A stretch of 63,001 nucleotides of DNA, from positions 1 to 63,001 of the forward strand of contig CALCPD010000008.1 of the NCBI GenBank assembly GCA_937897875.1. The letters run 5' to 3'. The first letter of the stretch is position 1, and each line of letters opens with the position of its first letter. Positions 3 to 52,155 of the stretch are shown piece after piece. The stretch comes from an uncultured Nitrosopumilaceae archaeon. Lineage in GTDB: Archaea; Thermoproteota; Nitrososphaeria; Nitrososphaerales; Nitrosopumilaceae. The notes under the pieces are model-generated. The model worked only from the letters and a program-made list of their open reading frames with translations, was not told the DNA's origin and did not search any database. Both the position numbers and the translations under genes were made by a program.

Positions 3-668
3 GACGCATCTGGAAAACCATTATCAACTTCAATGAAAAGTACAATTGAACGTCTTAGAACTTGGGATAGTAGAAGTAAAGTTAATGCATCATCAGATAA
101 AAATTTGAGACAAGCATTAAGTGAACTTGCAACATTAAAAGATAAACTTTCACTTTCAGATTCAGTTATCGAAAAAGCAGCTTACATTTACAGAAAAGCA
201 TTAGAGAAAGGATTAGTCAAAGGTCGTTCAATTTCTGCATTAATTGCATCTGCATTATATGCAGCTTGTAGAGATACAGAAACACCAAGAACATTGAAAG
301 ATGTTGCAGATGCAGGTAACATTAAGAAAAAAGATATTGCAAGATGTTACAGATTATTACACAGAGAATTAGAATTAAAAATGCCGGTAGTTGATCCAAC
401 ACAATGTGTTGCAAAAATTGCAAGTAAATTACAAATTTCTGAAAAAACAAAACGTTATGGAATTAAAGTTTTAAGAGAAGCACAAGAACATGAAGAATCT
501 GCTGGCAAAGATCCAATGGGACTTGCAGCAGCAGCATTATACCTGTCATGCGTTAAAAATGGAGAAGATAGAACTCAAAGAGACATAGCTGAAGCTGCAA
601 ATGTAACTGAAGTAACAATAAGAAATAGATACAAAGGACTGAGATTAGATCAGAGTATTGAAAGGTAG
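3..668 (+). CDS. tfb: Transcription initiation factor IIB (5'-truncated by window)
   Basis: Two cyclin repeats with GRS, PRTL, GKDPMG and VTEVTIRNRYK motifs; frame is open upstream of the ORF-track start at 33. Confidence 0.95.
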   Translation, partial: DASGKPLSTSMKSTIERLRTWDSRSKVNASSDKNLRQALSELATLKDKLSLSDSVIEKAAYIYRKALEKGLVKGRSISALIASALYAACRDTETPRTLKDVADAGNIKKKDIARCYRLLHRELELKMPVVDPTQCVAKIASKLQISEKTKRYGIKVLREAQEHEESAGKDPMGLAAAALYLSCVKNGEDRTQRDIAEAANVTEVTIRNRYKGLRLDQSIER

Positions 669-679: not shown

Positions 680-1240
680 ATGCCACAAACAAAACCAGTC
701 ATTGCAATTGTAAACGTAGTAGCTTCTGCTACAATTGATCAAAAATTAGACCTTGTCGATATTACAAAAAAATTCCCAGATGTAGAATACCATCCTGAGC
801 AATTCCCAGGAGCAGTGTTTAGACTTAAAAATCCAAAAACAGCTACTTTGTTATTTAGTTCAGGCAAAATGGTTTGTACAGGTGCAAAATCACAAGAATT
901 AGCAGAAACAGCAGTATCCAATGTAGTAAAAATTTTAAGAAAAGGTAAAATTAAAATTAAAAAAGATGCCGTAGTTTCAATTCAAAATATTGTTTCTTCA
1001 ATTAACTTGGGCGGCAAAGTCAACTTGGAACAAGCAGCAAGAACATTGCCAAGAAGCATGTACGAACCAGAACAATTCCCAGGTTTGATTCACAGAATGC
1101 TTGACCCAAAAACAGTCATCTTGATTTTTGCATCAGGAAAACTAGTTTGTGTTGGAGCTAAATTAGAAAAAGAAATTCATCGTTCAGTCCACCAAATTCA
1201 CAGTCTATTAGAAGAAAAAGACTTGATGGTATACGATTAA
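680..1240 (+). CDS. tbp: TATA-box binding protein
   Basis: Two repeats of NVVAS/NIVSS...YxPEQFPG...FxSGKxVCxGAK. Confidence 0.97.
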   Translation: MPQTKPVIAIVNVVASATIDQKLDLVDITKKFPDVEYHPEQFPGAVFRLKNPKTATLLFSSGKMVCTGAKSQELAETAVSNVVKILRKGKIKIKKDAVVSIQNIVSSINLGGKVNLEQAARTLPRSMYEPEQFPGLIHRMLDPKTVILIFASGKLVCVGAKLEKEIHRSVHQIHSLLEEKDLMVYD

Positions 1241-1252: not shown

Positions 1253-2524
1253 CTATTCAATTTTTAATGGTATTTCAATAGATCCAAAACTTTCATTGAC
1301 CCTAAAATTATAATTTTTAGAGGAATCATATATGAATTGATTTCCACCATAACCAATATTTGGTCCAAACATCATATTGAAAATAAATGATGTTCCAGGA
1401 CTAATTGGAATTTGACCAGATATAAAGTCCATTCCAGCATACTTGAATGCTTTAGAGCCATCCCAAACATCATAGTTACAAATTGAAGGTCCAGTACATT
1501 TCAGTGAAATAACTTCATTAGAGTTATTTTCAGCCATAATTCTTAAACGAAGCATAGCCTGACCAGAAGAACTTATTTCAAATTCATTTCCAAAATTTCC
1601 AATCCCAGGATAGTAGTAAGTTATAGATCCAACATCATATCTATCAGAAGATTTTTTGAATTCAGTAAATTCAAGATTTTGTTTAATTTCTTTTTCACAA
1701 TTGAGTCTTTTGTAATTAGATTTAATGGATTGACATTCAGATACAATTGAATCAGATACAGATTTTACAGAATTATCACCTACGGATATAATACCAGATT
1801 TTACAAGGTGGTTAATTCCACTCAGAAAATCAGATTCAGTAATTTGGCCATCAGCCCACCATCCTGCGTTGTTTTTGACCCATGTAGGAATTTTATCACT
1901 CTTTTGGGAAAGAGTAGAAGTATCAACTTCAATGATTTTTTCTTTTATTAAAAATTGAATTCCTTGAACAAATGATGAATCATCGATAGAGCCGTCAGCC
2001 CACCATCCTGCGTTGTTTTTAATCCAAACAGGGACTTTTTCAACAGATTTTGACATACGATACTTGGGATCTATTTTATCAAGAAGTGGAGTCATGTTTT
2101 GACCAGAGATTTTAACAATTGCTGCTGAAAAAATGTTAGATGTAGAACCATCAGGCATAGTGAAATCCACATACTTTGCATAAACAGTGTCACCAGGCAT
2201 TGAAACTAGACGATTCTTTGCAGTATCTCCTGAATCAGCAACAAAAACACGTCCTTTGAAAATTCCACTATAAACTCCAGTTTCCACAACTTGTATTTCA
2301 AGCCCATCAGGTGAAGAGTCAGACCAAACAGATATTGTAAATTTATCAGCAAAATTTGGATATTCCTTTTTGTTCATGTCATTATCGTGAACATAGATAT
2401 CTACAAAAGAATTTGAAGAGATAATTTCTTGTTTCCAATAAATTGTACCAATATTGGAAGGTTCTGCAAATGCAACAGGAATTATAAAAATCAGTAAAGG
2501 AAGAATCAAGACAAGTAGGTTCAT
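1253..2524 (-). CDS. Secreted/surface protein with two thaumarchaeal WxKNNAGWWADG modules
   Basis: Signal peptide; two PxWxKNNAGWWADG modules; C-terminal Cys-containing domain shared with 2617-3381. Confidence 0.8.
   Translation of the reverse strand: MNLLVLILPLLIFIIPVAFAEPSNIGTIYWKQEIISSNSFVDIYVHDNDMNKKEYPNFADKFTISVWSDSSPDGLEIQVVETGVYSGIFKGRVFVADSGDTAKNRLVSMPGDTVYAKYVDFTMPDGSTSNIFSAAIVKISGQNMTPLLDKIDPKYRMSKSVEKVPVWIKNNAGWWADGSIDDSSFVQGIQFLIKEKIIEVDTSTLSQKSDKIPTWVKNNAGWWADGQITESDFLSGINHLVKSGIISVGDNSVKSVSDSIVSECQSIKSNYKRLNCEKEIKQNLEFTEFKKSSDRYDVGSITYYYPGIGNFGNEFEISSSGQAMLRLRIMAENNSNEVISLKCTGPSICNYDVWDGSKAFKYAGMDFISGQIPISPGTSFIFNMMFGPNIGYGGNQFIYDSSKNYNFRVNESFGSIEIPLKIE
1952..2032. repeat. 81-nt near-identical dispersed repeat, copy 1 (copy 2 at 17920-18000)
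   Basis: Manual alignment shows 1 mismatch in 81 nt; encodes PVWIKNNAGWWADGSIDDSSFVQGIQF. Confidence 0.85.
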
Positions 2525-2616: not shown

Positions 2617-3381
2617 TTATTCCAGGTCTAGGTGAACATCAAAACTACCAAATGGTTCATTGATTCTAAAGGTATAACTCTTTGAAGAATCATACTCAAA
2701 TTCAGTTCCACCATATCCAATATTTGGACCAAATAAGATATTGAATTCTCTTGCATCACCAGGGTTCATTACGATTTGTCCACTAGTGAAATCCATTCCA
2801 GAATATTTGAATGCCTTTGAGCCATCCCAAACATCGTAGTTACAAATAGCTGGACTAGTACAGTTTATTGCTGTAATTTCAGAACTAGTATTTTCTGCAA
2901 GCATGCGGACTGACAATATTGGTTGTCCAGTTGGAGTGATTTCAAATTCATTTCCTTCAGAACCTACACCAAACCAATGATATGTAATTGGTCCTAGATC
3001 AAAGTGCTCAGCACCTGTTTTGTAGGTATGAACTAAAATCTCTTGTTTAATTGGTTTTTCACAATCAAGTCTTTTGTATGCTTTTACTATTTCTGAACAT
3101 TTTTCAAGTTCAGCCTCTAGTGAAGCAATAACAGGGTCATCGCTTGAAGATGCAGAGGATACAGATTTTTTGGATTCTTGTACTTGTGTAATACTCATGA
3201 TTCCTTCTTTGATCAAGAATTGAATTCCTTGAACAAATGAATCGTCATCAATCGTTCCTTCTGCCCACCAGCCTGCATTGTTCTTAACCCAAGCTGGAAC
3301 ATCAGCGTAAACTGATGATACACTTGAACCAACAAGCAGGAGTACAGCAATTGTAGAAATTGCAGTTAACACGGTTTTCAT
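2617..3381 (-). CDS. Secreted/surface protein, paralog of 1253-2524
   Basis: Signal peptide, WVKNNAGWWAEG module, shared CNYDVWDGSKAFKY...FGPNIGYGG domain. Confidence 0.8.
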   Translation of the reverse strand: MKTVLTAISTIAVLLLVGSSVSSVYADVPAWVKNNAGWWAEGTIDDDSFVQGIQFLIKEGIMSITQVQESKKSVSSASSSDDPVIASLEAELEKCSEIVKAYKRLDCEKPIKQEILVHTYKTGAEHFDLGPITYHWFGVGSEGNEFEITPTGQPILSVRMLAENTSSEITAINCTSPAICNYDVWDGSKAFKYSGMDFTSGQIVMNPGDAREFNILFGPNIGYGGTEFEYDSSKSYTFRINEPFGSFDVHLDLE

Positions 3382-3567: not shown

Positions 3568-4095
3568 ATGCAAGATTATCATAATGAATTAACTGAAAAA
3601 GAGGTTAAACAGTTTGTCAATGAAAGATTCTTAGAAGTAAAAAGTAGTAAAAAAATAAAAGAATTAGTTACATTTCAGGCCATGAACAAATATTTGATAA
3701 TGGCACACAATCAAGAGGAATTACGAGTATTAGGTAGAATTGTTGCCAGTAATAAAAAAAGAAAATTATCAGAAATAATGATTGATTATGAAAATAATCT
3801 AAAATTAGCTTTACAATCAAAGCCAACAATAAAAACACATAGTAATGTATTGATGCATTGTTTTGGATTTTTTTCCAAAGAATTTTCAGATTTAGAAAAA
3901 GAAAAGTTTTTTGATTTATTAACAGATTATAAAAATGAAAAAATAACAATCGGAAAAATACTTGCAGAAATTCACCCAATAGTATACAGGTTTAACAAAA
4001 CATACCTAGCAGGACAAACATATTTTTTACTATATTCAAATCCAGAACAAGGAAATATTTTTAAAATATTGGAAATCGATAAAACAAAAAAATAA
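3568..4095 (+). CDS. YbgA/DUF1722 family protein
   Basis: LVTFQAMNKYLIMAH...LGRIVA...HSNVLMHCFGFF...YLAGQTYF pattern typical of DUF1722. Confidence 0.8.
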   Translation: MQDYHNELTEKEVKQFVNERFLEVKSSKKIKELVTFQAMNKYLIMAHNQEELRVLGRIVASNKKRKLSEIMIDYENNLKLALQSKPTIKTHSNVLMHCFGFFSKEFSDLEKEKFFDLLTDYKNEKITIGKILAEIHPIVYRFNKTYLAGQTYFLLYSNPEQGNIFKILEIDKTKK

Positions 4096-4109: not shown

Positions 4110-5537
4110 TTAAGAAAAGTCAGTGTTGTATACAGGTCTAGCACCTTCAGGTACTTCAGCTGAAGCAGATTCAGATACAGGTTTTCCCCTAACTTGATAA
4201 ACCCTCACTTTATGAAATACATTGTGTGAGGAAAATATTGCCAATCCAGCAATTGCAGCACCAATGAAATTTCTGATAGTAATTTCCAAACTAGGCTCAG
4301 ATGCAACCAATGAGAGTTCAAATACGACATAAAAGTTATCAAATAACCAAAATGCCAGAGTCACCCAAGCAAGTATTCCACCTATCAAATAACCTAATCT
4401 GGCTTTCTGTTTTACAAATGAAATAGCAAACAAAATGGCAGCGTACCAAATTACGGAACCAATTAACCAAGGAATTTGCCAAACATCATTTCTATCATCC
4501 AACCAATAGTAAGTTGTGCCAATGAAAGCCATGGCACACAAAGTAATTAACAGAATTTTTTGATTCATTTTGTATGAAGTCTTTTCTCCTTCAGATTTAG
4601 AAATAGAATTGAAAGTTTTAGCCTCTTCTCTAGCAATTTGAATTGCTTGAGTCATATGTGCTAATTGGACAGGAATTAATTTTTGTGCAGAGTCATCTTT
4701 TACTACAGAATCATGTACCAGACTATCAACTAGAGGTCTTGCCAAAGAAGCTTTAACTGGAGTAACTAAATCAATCCAATACGAAGAAAGTCTAGGAGTT
4801 AAAAATGGAATTTGAATTACATTCAAGTTTCGATTAAGAATTGAAGAATACAATCTCATCAATTGTTCATATGTCATTACATCAGGTCCACCAATCTCTA
4901 GAATTTTTCCCGTAGTTTCAGGATTTTTCATTGAACCTATCAGATATTCAACAACGTTATCAACTGCAATTGGTTGTGTTTGAGATTTAACCCATTTTGG
5001 ACAAACCATTAGAGGTAATCTTTCAACAAGATATCTAAGCATAGCATAAGAGCCACCTTCAGCACCTACAATAACTGATGCTCTAATTTCAGTCACAGGA
5101 ATAGTTCCACTTGCCAAAATTTTCCCTACATCATGTCTACTTTTCATATGTTTTGATAATTCTAAACCTTCGTTAACCAAACCGCCTAGATAGATAATTC
5201 GCTTTACACCAGAATCAGTAGCAGCCTTTAAGAAATTTTGAGCCTGTTGTTTTTCTCTATTTGCAAATTCAGCCCAATCTTTTTTTGAACCTTCCATTGA
5301 ATGAAGCAAATAATATGCAGTTTCAATGCCTTCGGTAGCAGCAATTAAAGAGTTAACATCAAATGCATCGGCTTGAACACGTTTAACATTTTCAGTGTCA
5401 GGGTATTTTGATCGAGACATTGCAGTAACTGTAAATCCAGAATCAGTTAATTTTTTCAAAAGTTTTTTGCCAATAAAACCACTTGAACCAGTTACCAAAA
5501 TATCATATGGGCTGTTTTGAGAAACTGTGTCAGACAT
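4110..5537 (-). CDS. Atypical SDR NAD(P)-binding oxidoreductase (YbjT-like) with C-terminal membrane domain
   Basis: VTGSSGFIG Rossmann motif, YYLLHSM, IIYLGGL, TQPIAV; about 4 C-terminal TM helices. Confidence 0.8.
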   Translation of the reverse strand: MSDTVSQNSPYDILVTGSSGFIGKKLLKKLTDSGFTVTAMSRSKYPDTENVKRVQADAFDVNSLIAATEGIETAYYLLHSMEGSKKDWAEFANREKQQAQNFLKAATDSGVKRIIYLGGLVNEGLELSKHMKSRHDVGKILASGTIPVTEIRASVIVGAEGGSYAMLRYLVERLPLMVCPKWVKSQTQPIAVDNVVEYLIGSMKNPETTGKILEIGGPDVMTYEQLMRLYSSILNRNLNVIQIPFLTPRLSSYWIDLVTPVKASLARPLVDSLVHDSVVKDDSAQKLIPVQLAHMTQAIQIAREEAKTFNSISKSEGEKTSYKMNQKILLITLCAMAFIGTTYYWLDDRNDVWQIPWLIGSVIWYAAILFAISFVKQKARLGYLIGGILAWVTLAFWLFDNFYVVFELSLVASEPSLEITIRNFIGAAIAGLAIFSSHNVFHKVRVYQVRGKPVSESASAEVPEGARPVYNTDFS

Positions 5538-5539: not shown

Positions 5540-5917
5540 TTAAAATTCATCACTCAATTTCTTTAACTTGCGTAAATCGGTGATTTCTATATTACTACTA
5601 AGGGTAATGATTTTTGCAAGTTTAGGATTTGCTTTTTCGCCAAGTTTCAACACAGTATCACCACGTAATCTAACCTCAATAGTAGTTTTTTTCTGTGCCA
5701 AATCTTTTGCAAGTTCTTTAGCTTCAGAAAGTTGTTTTAAGAAACCAGGCATTTTTGTAATTTCAATTGGAATATCAATTATATCAATTATTTTTGTACT
5801 ACCGTCAACATGAAAATTCATTGTAGGGGAATCATTGCAAGTTATGCTTAATTTTCCGGTATCAAGATAAGATAAAAAATTAGCGGGAAGATCAAAGTTT
5901 TTCATTGTCATCCACAC
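5540..5917 (-). CDS. Hypothetical protein
   Basis: Tightly packed middle ORF of the 6112->4110 operon. Confidence 0.6.
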   Translation of the reverse strand: MWMTMKNFDLPANFLSYLDTGKLSITCNDSPTMNFHVDGSTKIIDIIDIPIEITKMPGFLKQLSEAKELAKDLAQKKTTIEVRLRGDTVLKLGEKANPKLAKIITLSSNIEITDLRKLKKLSDEF

Positions 5918-6112
5918 CTATTTTGTTGCTGTAATGGTTAGTTTACCGGTAAGGGAAACTGTACCTGTTGGGACAACTTGCTTGTCTTTCATAATCTTAC
6001 CAGCCATCTCAAGATTATCAAAATGATAAGTGATTGAGGCGTGTTTCTGTGTAAGTTTGTCAAAGATTTCAGCAAGAAGGTTAGCCCATTCTTGTTCTTC
6101 TGTACCTGCCAT
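5918..6112 (-). CDS. Small hypothetical protein, first gene of operon
   Basis: ATG with TATA (6134-6141) and regulon box upstream. Confidence 0.65.
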   Translation of the reverse strand: MAGTEEQEWANLLAEIFDKLTQKHASITYHFDNLEMAGKIMKDKQVVPTGTVSLTGKLTITATK

Positions 6113-6161
6113 AATAGAAAAATTTGATTTATGATATTTAACCGACGAGAAGTTTTTGGAC

Positions 6162-6170
6162 TAGTGCTAA
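6162..6170 (-). promoter_or_regulatory. Regulon box for the 6112->4110 operon
   Basis: TAGTGCTAA; 20-nt gap to TTAAATAT (6134-6141); 50 nt to start. Confidence 0.85.
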
Positions 6171-6192
6171 GAAATCACATTGTTAAAAAAAA

Positions 6193-6201
6193 TTGGCACT
6201 A
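6193..6201 (+). promoter_or_regulatory. Regulon box for the B12-binding regulator gene
   Basis: TTGGCACTA; 20-nt gap to TTAAATAT (6222-6229); 49 nt to start 6250. Confidence 0.85.
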
Positions 6202-6249
6202 GTACAAATGATTACCATTAGTTAAATATCTTAAAAGGATAAAAAATCA

Positions 6250-7104
6250 ATGGTCTACATAAGGGCTAAAAAAGTCAAATCCGATCAATATTTGTATTTA
6301 GTAAAAAGTGTCTGGGATTCTAAAAAAAGTACATCCAAACAAGAGATTGTCAAATATTTAGGAAAAGCATCAGAAGTAGTAAAGGATGACATACCATTAG
6401 AATTTAGAAATAATGCAAAAATTTTATCAGTTCTAGCATCATATAATCCTGAAGACATTCAAAAAAGAGAAGATGCAACAAAAAAATCAAAACAACAATT
6501 ATTTAAAAAATTGACAGACGGAAATATAGAAGAATGTATTAAAATTTACAAAAATTACGTTGAAATATTTAACATAGCAGATTTCTTTGATAGAATTTTA
6601 AGACCAGTGATGTCGAAAATAGGAGAAGATTGGGATAGTGGGAAATTACCAATTGCAACAGAGCATGTAGCAAGTAATGTTGCCCAAACACTAGTAAAAA
6701 TCATCATGGAGCAAGTTTCAGGTACTGGAAATAAAAAGAAAATAATGCTCTGTGTACCAGTTGGAGAAGAACATCATATAGGCTGTGATGTGCTTGAAAC
6801 TTATCTAACAATCAAGGGATTCAAAGTTTTCAATATGGGCACATCAATTCCAACTGAATCAATTATTGAGTTCATAGACATGAAAAAACCAGACATAGTT
6901 TTAATTTCAATTACTATACAAGATAATGTATTAGCTGGACAAAGATTGGCAAAGAGAATCAGAGAAAAAAGTAAAATTCCAATTTTAGTCGGAGGCTATG
7001 CATTGCAAATTGATAATCCACCAAAATTTGAAGGAAATGTAATTGGGGATGCTAGTTTGGAAGATATTCCAAAAATACTAAGAAAAATACCATTAACAAT
7101 TTAG
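6250..7104 (+). CDS. CarH/LitR-like cobalamin-binding (photoreceptor-type) protein with basic N-terminal beta-sheet domain
   Basis: W-x9-EH (WDSGKLPIATEH) in helix bundle, GEEHHIG B12 motif, Rossmann B12 domain (PDIVLIS, ILVGG). Confidence 0.85.
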   Translation: MVYIRAKKVKSDQYLYLVKSVWDSKKSTSKQEIVKYLGKASEVVKDDIPLEFRNNAKILSVLASYNPEDIQKREDATKKSKQQLFKKLTDGNIEECIKIYKNYVEIFNIADFFDRILRPVMSKIGEDWDSGKLPIATEHVASNVAQTLVKIIMEQVSGTGNKKKIMLCVPVGEEHHIGCDVLETYLTIKGFKVFNMGTSIPTESIIEFIDMKKPDIVLISITIQDNVLAGQRLAKRIREKSKIPILVGGYALQIDNPPKFEGNVIGDASLEDIPKILRKIPLTI

Positions 7105-8439
7105 AAAAGATTCAATTTTTGGAGTACATAGAATTGAACTATGTGCAGCAGAATCAGTCCCAATACCATAACTGACTGTAGAGTCTCCAACAAAAAACAA
7201 ACCATCAATTCCAGGAATTACATGAGGCATTTTAGACTTCCAAACTTTTCCAGGTTCCTTTACTACAGATTCAACTAATTTCCATGCCATTGGACGTTCC
7301 CAAAGTAATGAAGAAGTAAATTTTGGATAAATTGAAGATATTTCTTGCTTCATTTTACTTACAATATTTTTAATTTTTTCAGAATCTTCGGTTTCAGAAG
7401 GAAGCACAGGAGTCCCTGCAATAATCAAATGCTCACCAGAAGGAGAAACAGATGGGGTAATATTAGAAATGAAAAAAATACCCTTAGTAACATAATCATC
7501 ACCCACAGGAAAAACAACTTGACGAGTATCTATTTGGGAATTTAATGCAAAATGTACTTCAACAACAGATGTTGTTTTATTTAATTTATCAATTTTTTGT
7601 ACAAATTTTCTGTCAATTACATTTTCTTCAAATAATTGATTTAATGCAGTATATGCAGGATATGAAATTACAACAGAATTTGTAGGGATGAGTTTTTCAG
7701 AATTTGAGGAGTCATTTACAATAACTCCCGTTACTTTAGAATTTTCAATGACTACTTTCTTCACAGATTGTTTCATTTGAATTTCGCCACCTTTCTCTAA
7801 AATATAGTCTCCAAGAACATTACAAATAGAATCATAACCACCGCCATCAGGGTATGCAAACTCACTGGTTCCACCCTTAAACGGATTAGCTCTAATGATG
7901 GTTCTAGCAAATTCACCTAGTGAAATGTGATCAGCAGTATCAGCAAAAGCTAACATGCATACTGCTTCAAAAAATGCGTTTGTGTCAGCATCCAAGTTAT
8001 CGGTAATTTTGGTTAGTGGTATTTCATCCCATAATTCAGTTTTTTCAATAGAGGAAAATGCCAATGGCAATAATAATTTAAGAAGTCTAACTCTACTTTT
8101 GAATGGTATCAAAGATAGTTTCAGTAAATCAATCATACCTTTAGGATAAATATGAAATCCAGTTGTAGCATAGAATGCAATATCATCGACTTTTGCAAGC
8201 TTTAATCTAGATTCAATTCCCAAATTTTTTAAAATAGTGAAAATGGCAGATTTTTTGTAAAAAGGCATTATATGAAATCCGTTATCAAGAACATGATTTC
8301 GATACTTCATCGATGCGGTTCTGCCACCCAATTTACCAGATTTTTCCAATACCATTACTTTGTGACCTTTATTTGCTAGCAAAGCACCAGTTGTCAAACC
8401 ACCTACTCCTGCGCCAATAATGACTGTAGGAGAAGACAT
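7093..8439 (-). CDS. FAD-dependent oxidoreductase, phytoene desaturase (CrtI)/amine oxidase superfamily
   Basis: IIGAGVGGL...LEK...LGGR, DNGFH, YPDGG, C-terminal GLFFVGDS. Confidence 0.8.
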   Translation of the reverse strand: MSSPTVIIGAGVGGLTTGALLANKGHKVMVLEKSGKLGGRTASMKYRNHVLDNGFHIMPFYKKSAIFTILKNLGIESRLKLAKVDDIAFYATTGFHIYPKGMIDLLKLSLIPFKSRVRLLKLLLPLAFSSIEKTELWDEIPLTKITDNLDADTNAFFEAVCMLAFADTADHISLGEFARTIIRANPFKGGTSEFAYPDGGGYDSICNVLGDYILEKGGEIQMKQSVKKVVIENSKVTGVIVNDSSNSEKLIPTNSVVISYPAYTALNQLFEENVIDRKFVQKIDKLNKTTSVVEVHFALNSQIDTRQVVFPVGDDYVTKGIFFISNITPSVSPSGEHLIIAGTPVLPSETEDSEKIKNIVSKMKQEISSIYPKFTSSLLWERPMAWKLVESVVKEPGKVWKSKMPHVIPGIDGLFFVGDSTVSYGIGTDSAAHSSILCTPKIESFLNC

Positions 8440-8487
8440 GAGTAAATTTCTTAATTTTTCTATTTAATTGAGGCTAACTTAATTCTC

Positions 8488-8496
8488 TAGTGCTAA
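8488..8496 (-). promoter_or_regulatory. Regulon box for the CrtI-family gene
   Basis: TAGTGCTAA; 20-nt gap to TTAAATAG (8460-8467); 49 nt to start. Confidence 0.85.
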
Positions 8497-8508
8497 CTAC
8501 TTTTGAAT

Positions 8509-8949
8509 TTAAATTGATTTAGAATAGGATTCAGCACAAACAATGAATTCAGACATTACAGAATTCATTCTTTTTAATAAATAAATTTTCAAAAATGGAA
8601 TTAATCGTAAAATACCATTAAGTTTTAAATCCACAATAATTAAAATTTCAGTTCCAATTGAATTTGAATTATAAGTTTCAATAAAGGAAGTACCTTTAGC
8701 AGGACCACTTAAAATAAACACTTTGTGGATATTGGGTTCAATAATTACATGTTTAGTTTTGATGTCTATTTTTTTACCTAAAAAAATAATTGATTCTAAT
8801 ACAATTTTTTCATTTGAAGAATCACTAATTATTTTTAATGATTTAAAATATTTTGGCATGATTTTATGAAAATTTTCCACATCAGTACTAATTTGAAATA
8901 TTTTATCAGGTTCAAGAGTACTTTTTTGAATTAGATTAAAACTACTCAT
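8509..8949 (-). CDS. SRPBCC/polyketide cyclase-like (START-fold) protein
   Basis: IFQISTDVENFHKIMP...SGPAKG pattern, about 146 aa. Confidence 0.7.
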   Translation of the reverse strand: MSSFNLIQKSTLEPDKIFQISTDVENFHKIMPKYFKSLKIISDSSNEKIVLESIIFLGKKIDIKTKHVIIEPNIHKVFILSGPAKGTSFIETYNSNSIGTEILIIVDLKLNGILRLIPFLKIYLLKRMNSVMSEFIVCAESYSKSI

Positions 8950-9304
8950 TAGTGATCTTTTTAGATAAATAATCCCATAAATTTGATTTTATCACTTTCA
9001 TATCAGGATAAAATTTTTGTATTTCAAAACATAGATTGACCAAAGATTGTTTTACAGCATCAGTTTTAGCAGGATCAGTTAAAGGGTATAATCGAATTGT
9101 TGTTTTTTCTTTACTAGTCATCAGATGAATAAAGAATTCATGGTGGGAATCATCAATTACAACTGCAGACAATAAGGCATTACTACCTCGCGTATCAATA
9201 TACATATCTTGAATTTTAATTAAAGGAGATTTTTGAAATATGGGCTTAAACAAAATTGAAAAATCAAAAAGATTCAAACTTTTATCCAATACAATATGAG
9301 GCAT
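8942..9304 (-). CDS. Hypothetical protein, co-transcribed with the SRPBCC gene
   Basis: ATG at 9304; 8-nt overlap with the downstream gene. Confidence 0.65.
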   Translation of the reverse strand: MPHIVLDKSLNLFDFSILFKPIFQKSPLIKIQDMYIDTRGSNALLSAVVIDDSHHEFFIHLMTSKEKTTIRLYPLTDPAKTDAVKQSLVNLCFEIQKFYPDMKVIKSNLWDYLSKKITNE

Positions 9305-9352
9305 CAACTATTTAGAAAAATAATTTATAAAAACATAATTAAATAAAATTCA

Positions 9353-9428
9353 TAGTGCCAATTAATTTTAAACATTCTAGTGGTAAAAAAATAGTAATTA
9401 AGCTTTATTTTTGACCATTTTAGCACTA
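9353..9428. promoter_or_regulatory. Divergent promoter with regulon boxes at 9353-9361 (-), 9378-9386 (variant) and 9420-9428 (+)
   Basis: Both exact boxes are 49 nt from their starts (9304 and 9477) and 20 nt from TATA elements (9325-9332 and 9449-9456). Confidence 0.85.
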
Positions 9429-9476
9429 GATAAAAAAATTTCAGTCTTTTAAATAAAATAAAAACGTAATCAGACT

Positions 9477-10388
9477 ATGTTAACTGAATTAATTCATCAA
9501 AAAAATTGTAAAAAACATGAAATGATTACAGATATGCACACAGGAGAAATTGCATGCAGTAGTTGTGGAATTGTTTCATTAGAACCAATATTAGATCTGG
9601 GTTCCGAAACTGCAGGTCTTAATGCAAACGATTATCAAAATAATTCAAGAGTAGGATCCAAAAGATCACTAAAAATGATTGACATGGGACTATCCACGCT
9701 AATTGAAGCTAAAGACAAGGATGTAACAGGAAAATCATTATCAATTGAAAATCGAAGAATGTTCTACAGATTAAGAATGTGGGACAGAAACAGTCGTTCT
9801 GCAGTTACTTCAAAATCATTTCAAAAAGCATTTACATTACTTGATGCAATTAGTTCAAAATTAGGACTACCAGAATCAGTAGTTGAAGAGAGTGCATATT
9901 TGTTTAGAAAAATTGCAGCAAGAAAAATTCTTGCAGGTAGATCAACAGCAGCTATGTTATCTGCAACAATTTACATAACATGCAGAATCACAGATACACC
10001 AAGAACATTACAAGATATTTCAGATGCAGGTAACATTAAGAAAAAAGTGCTACAAAGGACATATAGATTTCTTGCAAAAGAAATGGATCTCAGTCCCGAA
10101 GCATACACTCCATCAGAATTTGTTACCAGAATAGCAAAAGGATTGTCTATCTCTGAAAAAACACAAAGATTGACGTTCAAAATATTGGATTTATGTGCAA
10201 AAAAGCATGTTTCAACAAGTAAAAATCCAATGGCAATGGCTGCAGCAGCCATACATTTGGCATCAACAATCAATGCTGAGAAAGTGTCTCAATTGAAGAT
10301 ATCAAAGATTTCAGGTATCAGCGCAGTAACAATCAGAGAAAGAAGAAAAGAGATTATAGAAAAAGTTGGAGAAATAGAAATTGGGTAG
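9477..10388 (+). CDS. tfb: Alternative transcription initiation factor IIB paralog
   Basis: Zn ribbon (CKKH...CSSCG), B-reader/linker (GLST, RLRMWD), two cyclin repeats; divergent C-terminal helix ISAVTIRERRK. Confidence 0.92.
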   Translation: MLTELIHQKNCKKHEMITDMHTGEIACSSCGIVSLEPILDLGSETAGLNANDYQNNSRVGSKRSLKMIDMGLSTLIEAKDKDVTGKSLSIENRRMFYRLRMWDRNSRSAVTSKSFQKAFTLLDAISSKLGLPESVVEESAYLFRKIAARKILAGRSTAAMLSATIYITCRITDTPRTLQDISDAGNIKKKVLQRTYRFLAKEMDLSPEAYTPSEFVTRIAKGLSISEKTQRLTFKILDLCAKKHVSTSKNPMAMAAAAIHLASTINAEKVSQLKISKISGISAVTIRERRKEIIEKVGEIEIG

Positions 10389-10563
10389 AACTTGTAGAAA
10401 TATCTGTAAAAGATATCAAGCAGATCCAGTTCCAAATAAAATCAGATATGAAATTGGACAAAAAAGATGTACATTTTGCGGAATTTTCTTATCTTTAGAT
10501 GATGTAAGATGCATTTGTTGTAAAGCAGTCTTAAGAACAAAACCAAGAAGTAAGAAGAAATAA
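10381..10563 (+). CDS. Small Cys-rich zinc-finger protein
   Basis: CRNIC...KRCTFC...RCICC...LRTKPR; overlaps the TFB stop codon. Confidence 0.75.
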   Translation: MGRTCRNICKRYQADPVPNKIRYEIGQKRCTFCGIFLSLDDVRCICCKAVLRTKPRSKKK

Positions 10564-10568
10564 TTTTT

Positions 10569-11255
10569 TTATTTTCTTCTAAATATTTTATTTCTAAAAA
10601 TAATTAAAAATATCATAGTAGGAAATCCAACCAGTATGGAAATTCCAATTATAAAAGACACATAGTCATTGAAAAATAATTTTGTTTCAAACCAAGCTTT
10701 TGGAAGAGTTGTAAAAAAATCAGACCCAGAGAAATCTTCAATTGTACCTACTGCTAAAGCATATTTTCCACTTTGATTTTTTTCATCAGAAACTAAAATG
10801 AAATATTGTCCATCGGCAGGAATTATTGTTGTAACTTCTTGTCGTTCCCAATAGGTAACTTGTCCAAATGGTTCATAGAATTCGTTTCCAGGGTAATCAC
10901 CCTCATAAAGAAATTTCTGTACACTTGATTCAATATTTGATGAAGTTCCAGCCCCATTAAACAAATCATCGTTCATTAAAATTAAAGATGGGGAATAATT
11001 CTCCAAACCCTCGAGTTTAGGAATAACAATACTTGCATAAAATGAGTCATCCTTTTTGGCATCAAATGTATAAAATTTACTTTCCTCCACGCCTAAATTA
11101 TCATAAATAGCCCAAGAAATTTTATGATCTGGAATAACTAATGCTGATTCAAAATCCCTATGGGAGTCATCATGACTAATTAATTTATGAGCATGTGCAA
11201 AAGGTGAAATTGATAGAACAATTAGAATTAAAAATAAAAATATTACTTTCCTCAC
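10569..11255 (-). CDS. Exported, C-terminally anchored hypothetical protein
   Basis: Signal peptide ending AHA|H, FYEPFGQ motif, C-terminal TM helix. Confidence 0.75.
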   Translation of the reverse strand: MRKVIFLFLILIVLSISPFAHAHKLISHDDSHRDFESALVIPDHKISWAIYDNLGVEESKFYTFDAKKDDSFYASIVIPKLEGLENYSPSLILMNDDLFNGAGTSSNIESSVQKFLYEGDYPGNEFYEPFGQVTYWERQEVTTIIPADGQYFILVSDEKNQSGKYALAVGTIEDFSGSDFFTTLPKAWFETKLFFNDYVSFIIGISILVGFPTMIFLIIFRNKIFRRK

Positions 11256-11383: not shown

Positions 11384-11806
11384 ATGCAATATATAGAAAG
11401 AGAGTTAGCTCCAGATACAAAGATACCAATTAGAATAGGATTCATTAAACCAAATGGAGCACCTTCAATTATTTCATTATGGTATATCGATATTGATGGA
11501 AAAATTTATTGTGCAACACAAAAAACTGCAAAAATCCTCCAGTATTTAGAAAATCAACCAATATGTGGTTTTGAAATTGCAGCAGATAAACCACCTTACA
11601 AAGGTTCACGGGGAGAAGGTAAAGTTAAACTCATACCATCAAAAGGATCAGAAATATTAAAAATTTTAATTAAAAAATATTTAGGAGATAAAGAATCAAC
11701 ATTATCTAAATTTCTATTAAGTCATTGTAAAAATGAAATTGCCATAGAAATTACACCTACAAAAATATTTCATTACGACTATTCAAAACGAATGAAGGGA
11801 ATTTAA
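11384..11806 (+). CDS. Pyridoxamine 5'-phosphate oxidase-like (split-barrel flavin/F420-binding) protein
   Basis: RIGF..NGAP.I.SLWY...IYCATQ..AK...L...P.CGFEI...PYKG.RG.G pattern. Confidence 0.75.
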   Translation: MQYIERELAPDTKIPIRIGFIKPNGAPSIISLWYIDIDGKIYCATQKTAKILQYLENQPICGFEIAADKPPYKGSRGEGKVKLIPSKGSEILKILIKKYLGDKESTLSKFLLSHCKNEIAIEITPTKIFHYDYSKRMKGI

Positions 11807-44393: not shown

Positions 44394-44603
44394 TACAACA
44401 TATCATGAATTAGTTAGGTTGATTAACTTTTTTGATAAAAATTTGAATAAAACCAACAAACATCAATTCAGATAAAAATAAAAAGAATGAAAAAATAATT
44501 GCATTATGGATACGTTAGATTATTTGATTAAGCAAGATGACCAAATATCCCAATCAATGCCAGAATGTGAAAATATTAACAGAGATGGGGAAGAAGAAGA
44601 TAA

Positions 44604-45350
44604 TTAAACTAAATTATAAAAATCAATTTTAGGTGTAAAAATTACAAATTCTTTCACCATATTAAATAGAAATATTTCAGAATCAACTTTAGTTCCAAAC
44701 ATCAAAGGATACTTTTGCATATGATCTAAAAGAATTTTTTTTTCAACAGATAATTCATCATCTCCTCGTATTTCTTTAAAAATATCAATTAATTTTTCTT
44801 TTTTATTATTAAGAGGATGAGGTCGCCCATAGGCATCTTTAGTCAATAGGCTATGATCAATTTTAGGAACATCCAACCCAAGAAATTCAAAAGATCGTTT
44901 ATCAATTCCTTGTTTAATTAATTCTTGATTTATCCTAGTAGAAAATGAAATTAAATCTTTTTTATGATTTACAGGTAAATTAGATAATTCGATCAAATCT
45001 AATAATTTTTTTCTATCAATTAATGCAACATTCTTGATTTTGGCCAATTGTTTTGCTGAAGAAATAAATTTGTTATTAGTTACAACTATAGCTAATTGTG
45101 CATGATATTTTTTTAAAGAATCTAATGCTCTTTGAACAGATGTGAAATTTAATTCAGATTCAGAACGTTTAGCTTGAACTGCAATTCGATGTTCGCCTTG
45201 TTGTAACATCATGTCACAACCATGATCTTTTGAACGATTAGTTATAGTTGTAGAATAACCTAATTTTTCAAATAATTCCACCATAAATATTTCAAATTCA
45301 CGTCCAGTGGTATTATCAATTAGAGATAAATCACATGAAATTTCAACCAT
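44604..45350 (-). CDS. Mrr-like restriction endonuclease domain protein
   Basis: GREFE......LGY.......DHGCD......AVQAKR...VTN..F...A. Confidence 0.85.
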   Translation of the reverse strand: MVEISCDLSLIDNTTGREFEIFMVELFEKLGYSTTITNRSKDHGCDMMLQQGEHRIAVQAKRSESELNFTSVQRALDSLKKYHAQLAIVVTNNKFISSAKQLAKIKNVALIDRKKLLDLIELSNLPVNHKKDLISFSTRINQELIKQGIDKRSFEFLGLDVPKIDHSLLTKDAYGRPHPLNNKKEKLIDIFKEIRGDDELSVEKKILLDHMQKYPLMFGTKVDSEIFLFNMVKEFVIFTPKIDFYNLV

Positions 45351-45420
45351 ATTCTGAATTTATCTATCGGGTATTAATTTCATTTTGACTTATTAATAGC
45401 AAATAAAAAACATAATCAAG

Positions 45421-45741
45421 TTGACAGAAATTCAATTAGCTGGTTCAGGAGGATGGGTTAATGCAGATTTAACAGATGAACAGGTAACTAAATCAAAACT
45501 TGTTCCAAATATGGATAAACATTTTTTAGCATCACTCGAAAAACTAGATACTGCAAAAATGAAAAAGCATTTTTGTAAACAATGTAATTCAGAATTTGAA
45601 GGTCCAACCAAAATACAGGTTGAAGAGAGTCCAAACGAGGCAGTTGCAGATGGATTAACTTTGATTGAAAGAGGACAATACACATGTCACCAATGCAATT
45701 CAATCATTGGAGAATATCGTGTTTTTCAAAAAAGTGAGTAA
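45421..45741 (+). CDS. Zinc-ribbon hypothetical protein
   Basis: FCKQC...YTCHQC. Confidence 0.75.
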   Translation: MTEIQLAGSGGWVNADLTDEQVTKSKLVPNMDKHFLASLEKLDTAKMKKHFCKQCNSEFEGPTKIQVEESPNEAVADGLTLIERGQYTCHQCNSIIGEYRVFQKSE

Positions 45742-45819
45742 CTAACATTACTAAAAAAATACTCACAAGTTTCAAAATCAAATCGTATTCAATAAATACC
45801 GCAATTTTTTAGCAATATT

Positions 45820-45957
45820 ATGGCAAATATGAAATGCGTATCATGTGGAATTGGTTTTTTCTCACCAACAGGTTCAGAAAAATGTTCTAAATGTGCAGGA
45901 AAAGAATCTCAAGGTAGTGAAGGTCACGATTCTTGCGGCTGTGGACACAGTCATTAA
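45820..45957 (+). CDS. 45-aa Cys/His-rich metal-binding protein (not in ORF track)
   Basis: MANMKCVSCG...KCSKCAG...GHDSCGCGHSH. Confidence 0.7.
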   Translation: MANMKCVSCGIGFFSPTGSEKCSKCAGKESQGSEGHDSCGCGHSH

Positions 45958-46004
45958 TTATTTTTTTTTAATCAAAAATATAACTAGTAAAAAAAAGACA
46001 AATT

Positions 46005-46517
46005 ATGACAAAAACATCACTAGAAATGAAAAAATTAGTTGAAGAATTTATCAAAATTACTAATGTAAAATATGAAGATCAAACAGATAAAATCAAAGAA
46101 AAAAGCGATTTAATTGATTGGCAATTTCATGTGGGTACAAATGTAATTTTCAGTAAGAATGCAAATAGAGAAGACAGAATACATGTTAATGTCAACATGA
46201 GATTTCCTCCAGAAGATTCAAAATTACTAGTTAGTAAAAATCCATCATTTTCAAAAGCAGTTATGGAAATTAGTGAAATTTGTGCAATTTGTAATATTGG
46301 TCATCAATGGATTAAAAATGGGGAAACAATAGCAGGTTTGGCAATATTTTCACATATAGACGAAGATAACTTAAACAGAGTTTCAGTTCACAATGTTTGG
46401 GATAACGTAGCTAGAGTTTCAGTACATGTTCAAAAAATCCTACGATCAAATTTTAGTAATTTCTCATCTAAAAACAACTTATCAGATGAAACAATGGATA
46501 AATCCATGTATAGATAA
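46005..46517 (+). CDS. Hypothetical protein (possibly DUF2299-like)
   Basis: 170-aa ORF ending in MYR, similar to archaeal DUF2299 proteins. Confidence 0.6.
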   Translation: MTKTSLEMKKLVEEFIKITNVKYEDQTDKIKEKSDLIDWQFHVGTNVIFSKNANREDRIHVNVNMRFPPEDSKLLVSKNPSFSKAVMEISEICAICNIGHQWIKNGETIAGLAIFSHIDEDNLNRVSVHNVWDNVARVSVHVQKILRSNFSNFSSKNNLSDETMDKSMYR

Positions 46518-46586
46518 AATATAAAAAATGAGATTTTTAAAACATACCAAAATATACATACACGAGTTTAATGAGGAATAAGTGAA

Positions 46587-46886
46587 ATGATTTCATTTGA
46601 ACATAGAGTAGTAAGTGAATATAAAATAAAAATATCAAAAGTAGATACATTAGCTAAATCCATTATGAACCACAGAGAACCTAAAAGTACTGAAGCAAAA
46701 GAAGCATCAGAATTTTTAGATGTGTTAGTTAACGAAATAGATGGATTCTATAAAGAACACAGTGAGATTTTATCAAAGAATGGTAAAAGACCACATGCAC
46801 GCTCTCGTTTACCTGAAACTAAACAATGGGTTGATAACATTGAAAGATTTTATGAATTAAATCCACGAAGAAGACCCAGAAAATAA
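46587..46886 (+). CDS. Hypothetical protein
   Basis: 99 aa; GKRPHARS and NPRRRP motifs. Confidence 0.7.
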   Translation: MISFEHRVVSEYKIKISKVDTLAKSIMNHREPKSTEAKEASEFLDVLVNEIDGFYKEHSEILSKNGKRPHARSRLPETKQWVDNIERFYELNPRRRPRK

Positions 46887-46895
46887 TCCAAGGTT

Positions 46896-47051
46896 TTATG
46901 AAGGTAATAACTGCCAGTCATTTTTTCCACATTTACACTGTTTCCCATATGCGATTATGTAATCCATGTATTCTAAATCAGTACAAGGCCCTTGATCAGG
47001 AATTATGACTTTTGAAGTGCATTTCCTACATTTTGCAATAAAACTATCCAT
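46896..47051 (-). CDS. 51-aa zinc-finger protein (not in ORF track)
   Basis: MDSFIAKCRKC...QCKCGKNDW. Confidence 0.6.
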   Translation of the reverse strand: MDSFIAKCRKCTSKVIIPDQGPCTDLEYMDYIIAYGKQCKCGKNDWQLLPS

Positions 47052-47090
47052 AATAATAAACATAAAATCAATAATTAAAATTTAAGAGAA

Positions 47091-47492
47091 TCAAAAATTT
47101 TGAGATTCAACAAATTCAACGATTGAAAGGATCTCCCCCATTTCTACAAGATGACCATAACTTGTATTTTTTGCATTTTTCATAGGTTTGTTACTAACAC
47201 TAATGAAAAGCATATTGCCATCAGAAAGTGGAATAGTAATTCTTTTAATTTTTGCATAGGATGTTATTGAATACATGCCATTACCAATATGTTCAACAGC
47301 AGAACTATAGTTATCCCATTCAGATCTTGAACGAGACATAGTATTCTTTGTTTTTTCTATAGGAACAATGTTTGAAACACCATTTCTTTGGCTATTCCAT
47401 AATAATTGACCACTTCCATCAGATACAGCTGCAAAGCGAACAGATTCATTAAAATCCATTATCATATTCAAAAGTTGTTCGTATTTATCCAT
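47091..47492 (-). CDS. Roadblock/profilin-like small domain protein, paralog 1
   Basis: VRFAAVSD.SG.LLW...G...Y.ITSY.KIKRITIPL. Confidence 0.65.
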   Translation of the reverse strand: MDKYEQLLNMIMDFNESVRFAAVSDGSGQLLWNSQRNGVSNIVPIEKTKNTMSRSRSEWDNYSSAVEHIGNGMYSITSYAKIKRITIPLSDGNMLFISVSNKPMKNAKNTSYGHLVEMGEILSIVEFVESQNF

Positions 47493-47542
47493 CAATTGTC
47501 TAAAGAGATTTTACTTAATATAATATTCGAAATTTAAAATTC

Positions 47543-47551
47543 TAGTGCCAA
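47543..47551 (-). promoter_or_regulatory. Regulon box for the 47091-47492 gene
   Basis: TAGTGCCAA; about 19 nt from TTATATTA (47516-47523); 51 nt from ATG. Confidence 0.8.
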
Positions 47552-47570
47552 ATAATTTATCAAAAAAGAG

Positions 47571-47978: not shown

Positions 47979-48031
47979 ATCATAAATACCATATTTCTAG
48001 AATAAAAACAATTGTTTAGATTAAAAAATAA

Positions 48032-48040
48032 TTGGCACTA
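48032..48040 (+). promoter_or_regulatory. Regulon box for the DICT-photolyase operon
   Basis: TTGGCACTA; 20-nt gap to TTTATAAC (48061); 51 nt to ATG 48091. Confidence 0.85.
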
Positions 48041-48090
48041 GATTTTCTCAATAAAATTAATTTATAACTGATTTCATAATCATATACATC

Positions 48091-48645
48091 ATGGATAACC
48101 CCTATGGAGATTTTGTACATGAAGTGTGGGAAGAATTCCCACAACTAGCAGAATGGCATAATTTAGATAATGACATTTTACCAATTTGGAAACTAGAGCA
48201 ATTCATTGAAGCTGGTTATCATAATTTTGATGCAGACAGAAAACCACTTTATCATCTCAGTAGAATGATTGAAAATTATGCACAAGAGCACAAGGAACCA
48301 CTGTTAGCTACATTTGAAAAAATTGCAAAATTCTCTTATGTTAAAGAAAGATATCAGAAGATGGTCAAGGATATGCCAAAAGTGTGGATAATTGCGGATT
48401 TTGATGACGAGGTAATACCTACGGATGTAGTAATACCAAACTCAGAATTTCTAAGCTGCAGTAATACCAATTTAGCAAATGTATGGACAGTTATCACAAG
48501 AGGACCATATGGACCATTTGGCTTAATCGCAGAAGAATATGAGGATGGTAAATTTAGAGGATTCTTCACACTTAATTCCAATGTATGCAGATACGCACTA
48601 AAAGTAATGGGAACAACATTGGACTCCAAATTTGATATTCAATAA
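48091..48645 (+). CDS. Stand-alone DICT sensory domain protein 1
   Basis: LYHLSRMIENYA...LLATFE...ERY...W.VI..GP..LIAE matches the DICT pattern. Confidence 0.7.
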   Translation: MDNPYGDFVHEVWEEFPQLAEWHNLDNDILPIWKLEQFIEAGYHNFDADRKPLYHLSRMIENYAQEHKEPLLATFEKIAKFSYVKERYQKMVKDMPKVWIIADFDDEVIPTDVVIPNSEFLSCSNTNLANVWTVITRGPYGPFGLIAEEYEDGKFRGFFTLNSNVCRYALKVMGTTLDSKFDIQ

Positions 48646-48667
48646 TTTTTAGAAATAAAAATACCTA

Positions 48668-50014
48668 ATGTATAAAAAATCATTATTCATTTTCCGTAGA
48701 GATTTAAGATTAGAAGATAACATAGGGTTGATTGAATCACTGCAAAATTCTATAGAAGTAATTCCATGTTTTATCTATGATGAAAATCTAATTAATAATT
48801 TAAAAGATTCAAAATTTAGATGGAATTTTCTTAATGAATCATTAACAGATTTAGATGTAGAATTAAAGAAAAAAGGAACAAGATTACAATTACTAGAAGG
48901 TAAGCCAGAGAAAGTAATAGAGAAAATAATTAAAAAACATAAAGTGGAAGCAATATTTTTAAATACAGATTTTACAAATTATTCACAAAAACGAGATGAG
49001 AAAATATATCAAACTTGTAAGAAAAATGAAATATCATTTCATAGTACATTAGACTTTTTACTTCATAATCCAAATGAAATAAAAACAAATGAAGGGTCAC
49101 CATACACAATTTATTCATTTTTCTATAAAAAAGCTAAGCAATTTCCAATCAGAAAGATTTCTAAAAATATTAAAAAGAATTATTCAAAAGAAATTATTTC
49201 TAACAGCGAAATAAGAAAAAATGAAATAAAAAATAATGAAATAATTGGTGGGCGAAAAGAGGCATTAAAAATTTTAAAACATCTAGACAAATTCAGAAAT
49301 TATGATAAAGTAAGAGATTTTCCAGAATTAAATCAAACAACAATGCTTGCAGCACATAACAAATTTGGAACAGTATCAATAAGAGAAGTTCATAACAAAA
49401 TAAAAGAAGAATTAGGCGTAGATCACACAATAATGGGGGAGATATACTGGCGAGAATTTTTCAGCTATATTTTATTCCATTTTCCATATTCACAAAAAAA
49501 ATCATTTAGAAAAAAATTTCAAAAAATACCATGGGCAAAATCAGAAGAATTATTCAAAAAATGGTGTGAAGGGAAAACAGGCTTTCCTATTGTTGATGCA
49601 GGAATGAGACAATTAAACAAAACAGGGTTCATGCACAATAGAGTCAGAATGATTGTGGCATCATTTCTAACAAAAGATCTACATATGGACTGGAAATTAG
49701 GGGAAAAATATTTTGGAGAAAAATTAATTGATTATGATCCTGCAGTTAATTCTGGAAATTGGCAATGGGCAGCGTCAACAGGATGTGATTCAGTACCATA
49801 TTTTCGAATTTTTAATCCGTGGAGACAACAAGAAAGATTTGATTTAGATTGTAAGTATATTAAAAAATGGGTTCCAGAATTGCAAAAAATGAAATCAAAA
49901 ACTATCCATGAATTATGGAAAGAATTTCCAGGTAATTTAGAGTATCCAAAACCAATACTAATACATAAAATCGAAGCAGATAAAACAAAATTAATTTTTA
50001 AGTTACAAAAATAA
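48668..50014 (+). CDS. phr: Deoxyribodipyrimidine photolyase (class I CPD photolyase/cryptochrome family)
   Basis: FRRDLRLEDN, WREFF, TGFPIVDAGMRQL..TGFMHNRVRM, DYDPAVNSGNWQW, FRIFNP. Confidence 0.95.
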   Translation: MYKKSLFIFRRDLRLEDNIGLIESLQNSIEVIPCFIYDENLINNLKDSKFRWNFLNESLTDLDVELKKKGTRLQLLEGKPEKVIEKIIKKHKVEAIFLNTDFTNYSQKRDEKIYQTCKKNEISFHSTLDFLLHNPNEIKTNEGSPYTIYSFFYKKAKQFPIRKISKNIKKNYSKEIISNSEIRKNEIKNNEIIGGRKEALKILKHLDKFRNYDKVRDFPELNQTTMLAAHNKFGTVSIREVHNKIKEELGVDHTIMGEIYWREFFSYILFHFPYSQKKSFRKKFQKIPWAKSEELFKKWCEGKTGFPIVDAGMRQLNKTGFMHNRVRMIVASFLTKDLHMDWKLGEKYFGEKLIDYDPAVNSGNWQWAASTGCDSVPYFRIFNPWRQQERFDLDCKYIKKWVPELQKMKSKTIHELWKEFPGNLEYPKPILIHKIEADKTKLIFKLQK

Positions 50015-50024
50015 ATGATTATAG

Positions 50025-50033
50025 TTGGCACTA
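50025..50033 (+). promoter_or_regulatory. Regulon box for DICT protein 2
   Basis: TTGGCACTA; 21 nt to TTATATAC (50055); 50 nt to ATG 50083. Confidence 0.85.
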
Positions 50034-52150: not shown

Positions 52151-52155
52151 AATAT

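Follow-up and report, generated by a model that had tools for sequence, protein, structure and literature searches.

The window, that is, the whole 63,001-nt stretch of DNA analysed here, is contig C8 of a 1.22-Mb genome with 31% GC (G000), whose relatives are ammonia-oxidising archaea (AOA) of the Nitrosopumilus type. It encodes a full-length TFB paralog, hereafter the alternative TFB, which is preceded by a short oriented sequence (the box) and followed by the gene of a small Cys-rich protein (the Zn gene). A CarH-like B12-binding regulator is encoded in the same cluster, and other box-bearing units lie around it and farther along the contig (Table 1). The gene had been described in the initial annotation as a second TFB; it is a TFB paralog, but one of at least four in this genome (two on C8 and one each on C70 and C26), which also has at least two TBP genes. 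Mesophilic AOA genomes are reported to contain 4–11 TFB paralogs (PMC7554672, in the part available). The conventional TFBs at the start of the window and on C70 are 78% identical over their shared part and have the same starting sequence at the contig ends, and an N-terminal TFB half on C73 could belong to either of them.

Table 1. Genes and promoter elements in the window, with their positions
Feature	Position	Strand	Remarks
TFB of the conventional VTEVTIRNRYK clade	3..668	+	Comparison gene; ORF truncated at its 5' end by the contig start; helix VTEVTIRNRYK at 603-635
TBP	680-1240		Directly after the preceding TFB
Predicted secreted protein	1253-2524	-	Box; PxWxKNNAGWW repeat, related to the next
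Predicted secreted protein	2617-3381	-	Box; PxWxKNNAGWW repeat; abundant in RNA-library contigs
DUF1722 protein	3568-4095	+	Conserved cluster member
NAD(P)-binding protein	4110-5537	-	Conserved cluster member
Regulator promoter, class II	6193..6221	+	Distal box 6193-6201; second box 6212-6221 abutting TATA
CarH-like B12-binding regulator	6250..7104	+	Both B12-binding Pfam domains; putative binder of the box
Phytoene-desaturase-like FAD oxidoreductase	7093-8439	-	Conserved cluster member
Box of the divergent unit 8942-9307 / 8509-8949	9353..9361	-
Regulon box of the alternative TFB, TTAGCACTA(G)	9420..9429	+	Single distal copy, class I promoter; 9-nt core TTAGCACTA at 9420-9428
BRE zone	9439..9448	+	Pyrimidine-rich, without a second box
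TATA box, TTAAATA	9449..9455	+	28 nt before the ATG at 9477
Alternative TFB, 303 aa	9477..10388	+	Full-length; variant Zn ribbon, degenerate B-reader, two cyclin repeats, C-terminal HTH
B-reader region, aa 34-57	9576..9647	+	E44 kept, W and R of PEWR lost; fastest-changing part
Recognition helix ISAVTIRERRK, aa 281-291	10317..10349	+	Clade-fixed changes S282 and A283
Zn gene (60-aa Cys-rich protein, unnamed archaeal family)	10381..10563	+	TTG start; 8-nt overlap with the TFB end
Weakly PPOX-like protein	11384-11806	+	Conserved cluster member
Second regulon island	47091-50634		A pair of small paralogs, two weakly DICT-like genes, photolyase; boxes at 47543, 48032 and 50025
Class I box, small gene (48091-48645) and photolyase (48668-50014)	48032..50014	+	Direct box target
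Second regulator paralog	52156-53016	-	37% identical; without Wx9EH; no box upstream

The alternative TFB contains two PF00382 repeats (E 1e-32), i.e., cyclin-like repeats with a C-terminal HTH, and matches 1d3u_B both in sequence (E 1e-37) and by Foldseek (199 columns, rmsd 3.7), the latter with a predicted model of modest quality (pLDDT 67, pTM 0.39). Its score against PF08271 (20.9 bits) is below the cut-off of 29, and that against NCBIfam PRK00423 (249.9 bits) is below the threshold of 384. In the Zn ribbon, C11, C27 and C30 are conserved and position 14 has no conserved ligand; H7, found in 50 of the 54 sequences of the clade, may be the fourth Zn ligand through an H-for-C swap. A PEWR-type motif is missing from the B-reader, in that the equivalents of W45 and R46 are absent from all 54 clade sequences while present in 49 and 50, respectively, of 55 other TFBs; E44 and R58 are conserved, as are the linker and the cysteines of the ribbon. 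The WR motif has also been lost in other AOA TFB clades (the C26 TFB of G000, G174 and G105). The protein falls in a separate clade, in a TFB tree from a single search with midpoint root and several long branches, where the positions of G080/G121 and of the C26 TFB are unreliable. The clade is under purifying selection, with dN/dS of about 0.06–0.10 (seven pairs; dN 0.05–0.10, dS 0.67–1.21). A more basic DNA face was considered as a mark of the clade and proved not to be distinctive, the net charge of the core being +14.9 against +15.2 and +9.5 in the two conventional clades.

The recognition helices of the alternative and the conventional TFB had been quoted correctly, but the argument built on their difference (ERRK against NRYK) is not supported, as Q272, V284 and R287 are unchanged and the ERRK sites vary inside the clade. 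Q272, V284, T285 and R287 are invariant in all 54 clade sequences, and the Q, V and R are common to 55, 53 and 55 of 55 other TFBs. The trio aligns to Q169, V181 and R184 of 1d3u_B, which we take to be the BRE contacts Q268/V280/R283 of P. woesei. Position 288 is D in 34, E in 12, N in 7 and S in 1 of the clade sequences, while T, R, S and A all occur at position 290. The changes fixed in the clade are T to S282 (54/54), E to A283 (51/54), D to K274 (47/54), A/S to Q193 (51/54) and also I281. A shift in promoter preference is therefore possible, although the quoted residues are no sign of it.

The placement of the box upstream of this gene was confirmed: 20 nt separate it from the TATA box, and 48 nt lie between the box and the ATG (49 nt counted from end to start). 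The transcript is likely to be leaderless, since the TATA box stands so close to the start codon (28 nt). The genome has 14 sites with a box and TATA at 19–21 nt, whereas 200 letter-permuted boxes gave 0.095 such sites on average and 2 at most. In 42 orthologous promoters, the purine fraction of the BRE zone falls to 0.02–0.07 at positions -1, -2, -4, -8 and -10, against 0.40–0.62 in a background of 87 promoters, which is a crude set; this zone is likely to be a weak BRE, judging from its composition. No second box signal was detected in 39 alternative TFB promoters. The box itself was ruled out as a TFB site, as it lies 20 nt away from TATA and persists where the alternative TFB is absent.

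Among 79 loci compared, a few of them from the same assembly, 46 have an ortholog with more than 55% identity, and the consensus TT[AG][GC]CACTA is found 20 nt before TATA in 42 of these. Its distance to the TFB start is 57–63 nt in 30 loci, 206–215 nt in 9 and 125–134 nt in 3. As for the other four, a variant box occupies this place in L001, and no upstream DNA could be read in L029, L042 and L044. In 6 of the 9 loci at 206–215 nt, an intact Zn-ribbon-like ORF of 50–53 aa separates the box from the TFB; such CxxC..CxxC ORFs occur at L035:7847-7996, L045:6468-6626, L026, L033, L039, L040, G094, G062 and G144, and are missing in the window. None of 47 other TFB paralogs has a box within 150 nt. 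A second box-bearing TFB copy, 52–56% identical, occurs in L040 (minus strand), G168 and G144 and, with a frameshift, in G192; the copy in G094 is more distant. These duplicated or relocated copies have kept the oriented box with no Zn gene behind them, which indicates that the box serves the TFB itself. A photolyase gene is often adjacent to members of this second box-bearing subclade (L040:602-1513 on the minus strand, L105, L104, L108 and L100). In another family, two divergent TFBs near the regulator (G080 and G121) have no box within 400 nt; a very divergent TFB with the helix NINIMTLRKR and no box was observed in another family a few kilobases from the regulator (L092:5095 and L094:12480).

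The coupling of the TFB to the gene behind it, proposed in the initial annotation, is borne out as a conserved arrangement. Of 46 loci, 45 have the Zn gene directly behind the TFB (the contig ends in the remaining one); the two genes overlap by 8 nt in 40, and 43 of the 45 show an SD-like sequence. This sequence sits in the last codons of the TFB and fits the 16S tail found in G000; together with the overlap, it makes translational coupling plausible. The Cys-rich protein has no match in Pfam, NCBIfam or PHROG, and its Atlas clusters consist of archaeal hypothetical proteins. The Zn gene is found in the regulon without the TFB as well. In G165, G123, G168 and G192, the box and the Zn gene are retained together with an upstream start that is fused to the last codons of the TFB, a layout that reads as an internal deletion of the TFB. 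The scars are seen at L107:10337-10439 (G165), L106 (G123), L105 (G168), L108 (G192), L109 and L110; a similar and less clear pattern occurs in G098 and G114. At least three deletion events are suggested because the scar junctions differ. An intact alternative TFB remains in 13 of 20 close regulator-positive genomes, which, together with the repeated deletion, indicates that the factor is optional. Contigs from RNA libraries span the TFB gene in all four runs compared and cross the TFB–Zn junction in at least two, which attests presence only, as these contigs were chosen for holding positions 5900-10600 and can neither rank genes nor show induction. In the stretch 44500-58000, 6–25 RNA contigs were found per run against 74–386 for the former; the photolyase had hardly any coverage, and this proves nothing.

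The regulator has the GxxW, EH, GxxH and GxxxP signature described for light-responsive B12 domains (PMC11796333, as far as this source was available). G125, W128, E138, H139, H175 and P201 are invariant in 40 of 40 regulator sequences, Wx9EH is present in 68 of 70 homologs, and the best Foldseek matches are the B12 domains of CarH. The score with the NCBIfam CarH model was 54 bits, where the cut-off is 400, and the match was confined to aa 79-227. The N-terminus is not a MerR-type HTH; three beta strands are predicted in aa 2-39, and this domain has no Pfam match. Structure searches with the full model were filled by the B12 domain, and only Atlas leads of 0.80–0.81 were obtained for the N-terminal fold. 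The regulator with its twin-box promoter occurs in several families of the order, and its predicted non-MerR beta-sheet N-terminus together with the twin boxes is likely to be the more novel part of the system. The paralog encoded further along the window (Table 1) could be a light-blind partner, by analogy with CarA and CarH.

Among 53 genomes of the family including G000, 35 have a full-length regulator and 18 do not, and the mean number of box+TATA sites is 5.0 in the former and 0.39 in the latter. On this co-occurrence, we infer that the regulator binds the box. The alternative TFB clade is present in 15 of the 35 regulator-positive and in none of the 18 regulator-negative genomes, and did not turn up in the 168 further genomes of the order that were searched, with at most ten candidates scored per genome. 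A DNA search of 52 relatives agreed on this distribution for close copies. Such counts overstate the association because kin are not independent, and they are descriptions, not tests. Among the close genomes, the mean number of boxes is 8.7 in the 13 with the alternative TFB and 5.6 in the 7 without. In other families of the order, too, the regulator gene is preceded by boxes. At L117 (G078), a stop breaks the regulator gene and three box+TATA sites remain, which is possibly a decaying regulon. The conservation of the box, the restriction of the clade to genomes with the regulator and the retention of the box by duplicated, relocated copies support regulon membership well, and the alternative TFB very probably belongs to the regulon of the B12 regulator.

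The box promoters are of two classes. In class I there is one distal box, as in the alternative TFB, the divergent unit and the photolyase unit. In class II, an extra copy of the box lies 18–20 nt further on, abutting TATA over the BRE, as in the regulator (36 of 36 promoters), the FAD oxidoreductase and others. This second copy was considered as the BRE of the alternative TFB and ruled out, because it is missing from the promoter of the alternative TFB (39 promoters) and present in genomes without this TFB and in other families. Four class I promoters with a pyrimidine-rich BRE zone were found in TFB-less genomes, so that promoters of this kind do not need the alternative TFB. Genes of protective type own the box directly, on the window contig and on C87. 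The regulon reaches beyond the window contig, since box+TATA promoters occur at C87:13655, C87:14741 and C66:792 and, with one mismatch, at C53:5137, C59:3165 and C90:4263. Photolyase is present in 9 of 52 relatives, all nine regulator-positive; it is found in 6 of 14 relatives with the alternative TFB and absent in 8, making the link to UV repair a loose one.

We favour, with a probability of roughly 0.45, the reading that the regulator induces this full-length TFB, probably in light, and that the TFB, which is optional, then feeds forward to boost this response. The regulator would bind the box and, at single-box promoters, act as an activator that helps to load TBP and TFB on a weak BRE; twin-box promoters might in addition be repressed through the copy over the BRE. 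The fixed spacing, single orientation and poor BRE would fit an activator site by analogy with CopR. This would depart from the family, since CarH and LitR proteins are described as repressors in the parts of the reports available (PMC6739363, PMC12809767). The signal would be light sensed by adenosyl-B12, which we hold to be a reasonable assumption with somewhat more for it than against it. The induced TFB, with its base-reading residues kept, neighbouring helix residues changed and the W and R of the B-reader lost, would mainly serve box promoters jointly with the regulator, in the manner of TFB3 and Orc1-2 in Sulfolobus, rather than a separate promoter class.

The initial annotation went further and proposed a cascade from B12 sensor to alternative TFB to a wider response. 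Its first half is supported, in that this TFB bears the box and is conserved as part of the regulon (box in 42 of 46 loci against 0 of 47 paralogs, clade in 15 of 35 against 0 of 18 genomes); the wider second tier is less likely, as protective genes have their own box, no promoter class of the alternative TFB was found with the one BRE pattern tried and the TFB was repeatedly deleted. A sigma-like tier, in which the induced TFB would read a different BRE and turn on a larger set of box-less genes, is doubtful. S282, A283, K274 and Q193 are indeed fixed in the clade at or beside DNA-facing helices, the gene's own promoter has a conserved pyrimidine pattern, TFB-bearing close genomes are richer in boxes, and TFB paralogs with distinct targets are described in the available parts of two reports (PMC3261711; bioRxiv 10.64898/2026.09.06.749720). 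However, the presumed base-reading trio is unchanged and the ERRK sites are variable, and the second box at the BRE position persists without the TFB and hence is not its BRE. A weak test of one candidate pattern on 31 genomes gave no support to a second-tier class defined by the pyrimidine BRE: pyrimidine BRE+TATA was matched 21 times in the 13 genomes that have the TFB and 18 times in the 18 that lack it, i.e., without enrichment, and the total of 39 was below the 185 of a backwards control. A true two-tier light cascade also appears unlikely; in it, the B12 photoreceptor would bind DNA through a beta-sheet domain of a new kind and, as a light-switched activator, would induce a dedicated TFB for box-less genes.

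If the promoter alone were specialised, the protein might be a non-specific stand-in that raises TFB dosage under light or oxidative stress. The conserved base-reading and TBP-facing positions, the altered ligand pattern of the Zn ribbon (H7 in 50 of 54 sequences) and the dispensability of the gene would suit this, and a promoter change alone can specialise TFB paralogs according to the available part of one report (PMC3261711); but the many clade-fixed substitutions and the loss of W and R under strong purifying selection suggest a changed protein function, and some genomes retain a second, diverged box-bearing copy, so that we find it quite unlikely. The degenerate B-reader, with W45/R46 equivalents missing throughout the clade and a faster rate of change than any other part, beside a conserved DNA- and TBP-binding core, might instead point to a damper that binds TBP–TATA, initiates poorly and lowers global transcription in light stress or ends the response. 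This is very improbable, given the conservation of E44, R58, the linker and the cysteines of the ribbon, and given that the WR motif is missing in other AOA TFB clades as well. A TFB without a normal B-reader, Pyrococcus TFB2, can reportedly still work. Scarcely credible is a passenger role, in which the box is kept for the Zn gene and the position of the TFB has no regulatory meaning: TFB-deleted relatives do retain box, start, SD and Zn gene, but copies without a Zn gene retain the oriented box, dN/dS is low and no genome searched has the clade but lacks the regulator.

Among known systems, the DNA-damage circuit of Sulfolobus Orc1-2 and TFB3 comes closest: a tfb paralog and effector genes are likewise preceded by a short non-palindromic motif, which Orc1-2 binds (PMC6061795, PMC6101591), Orc1-2 being the primary regulator and TFB3 a downstream factor in dual control of the targets (PMC6061795, in the part available). 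As for TFB3, the motif is in the TFB gene's own promoter, with binding of the regulator deduced from co-occurrence. TFB3 is described as truncated, without B-finger and HTH (PMC6101591), whereas the alternative TFB is full-length with an HTH, and the putative upstream factor here is B12-binding and not an Orc1/Cdc6 protein. The comparison with Streptomyces LitR, the ECF sigma factor LitS and crt, made in the initial annotation, is apt in that a regulator of B12 photoreceptor type has its site at its own promoter and at that of an initiation factor, and imperfect in that LitR is a MerR-type repressor, while the N-terminal domain here is non-MerR and the box keeps a fixed distance, as an activator site would; the promoter driven by LitS, crtEp, is a separate one, while the effector genes here own the box (PMC12809767, as available). 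CopR also has a motif at a fixed place just upstream of BRE–TATA, and is reported to activate targets and to repress its own gene; it is an octamer of the Lrp family with a semi-palindromic site, in contrast to the oriented, non-palindromic box of 9–10 bp (PMC7830388, in part). Haloarchaea and AOA have expanded TFB families, with several paralogs per genome (eight in N. maritimus) and condition-dependent expression (PMC3261711, PMC7554672, PMC12448741); the covered parts of this literature assign no upstream regulator or operator to an AOA TFB paralog, whereas here one clade is tied to a box and a sensor. Sulfolobus TFB2 is a full-length paralog, too, with its own targets though its TATA and BRE resemble those of TFB1 (bioRxiv 10.64898/2026.09.06.749720, in the part available), so that a conserved helix is compatible with a distinct regulon. 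It is essential and cell-cycle driven, unlike the alternative TFB, which has a patchy distribution and was lost repeatedly. The literature searched, which included few subscription papers and no supplements, yielded no account of such a circuit in AOA.

AOA with 4–11 TFB paralogs have none assigned to a signal or an upstream regulator in the parts of the literature covered, and for the clade described here the operator is defined, a sensor can be proposed and strains with natural deletions exist, making its role directly testable. The promoter layout suggests that a CarH-type sensor may act as an activator, opposite to the bacterial examples. A two-tier cascade, if true, would give a molecular handle on the light control of marine nitrifiers, the TFB being duplicated in some lineages. 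Marine ammonia oxidation is inhibited by light; if light is the signal, the system would offer a route into light sensing by AOA that bears on this inhibition.
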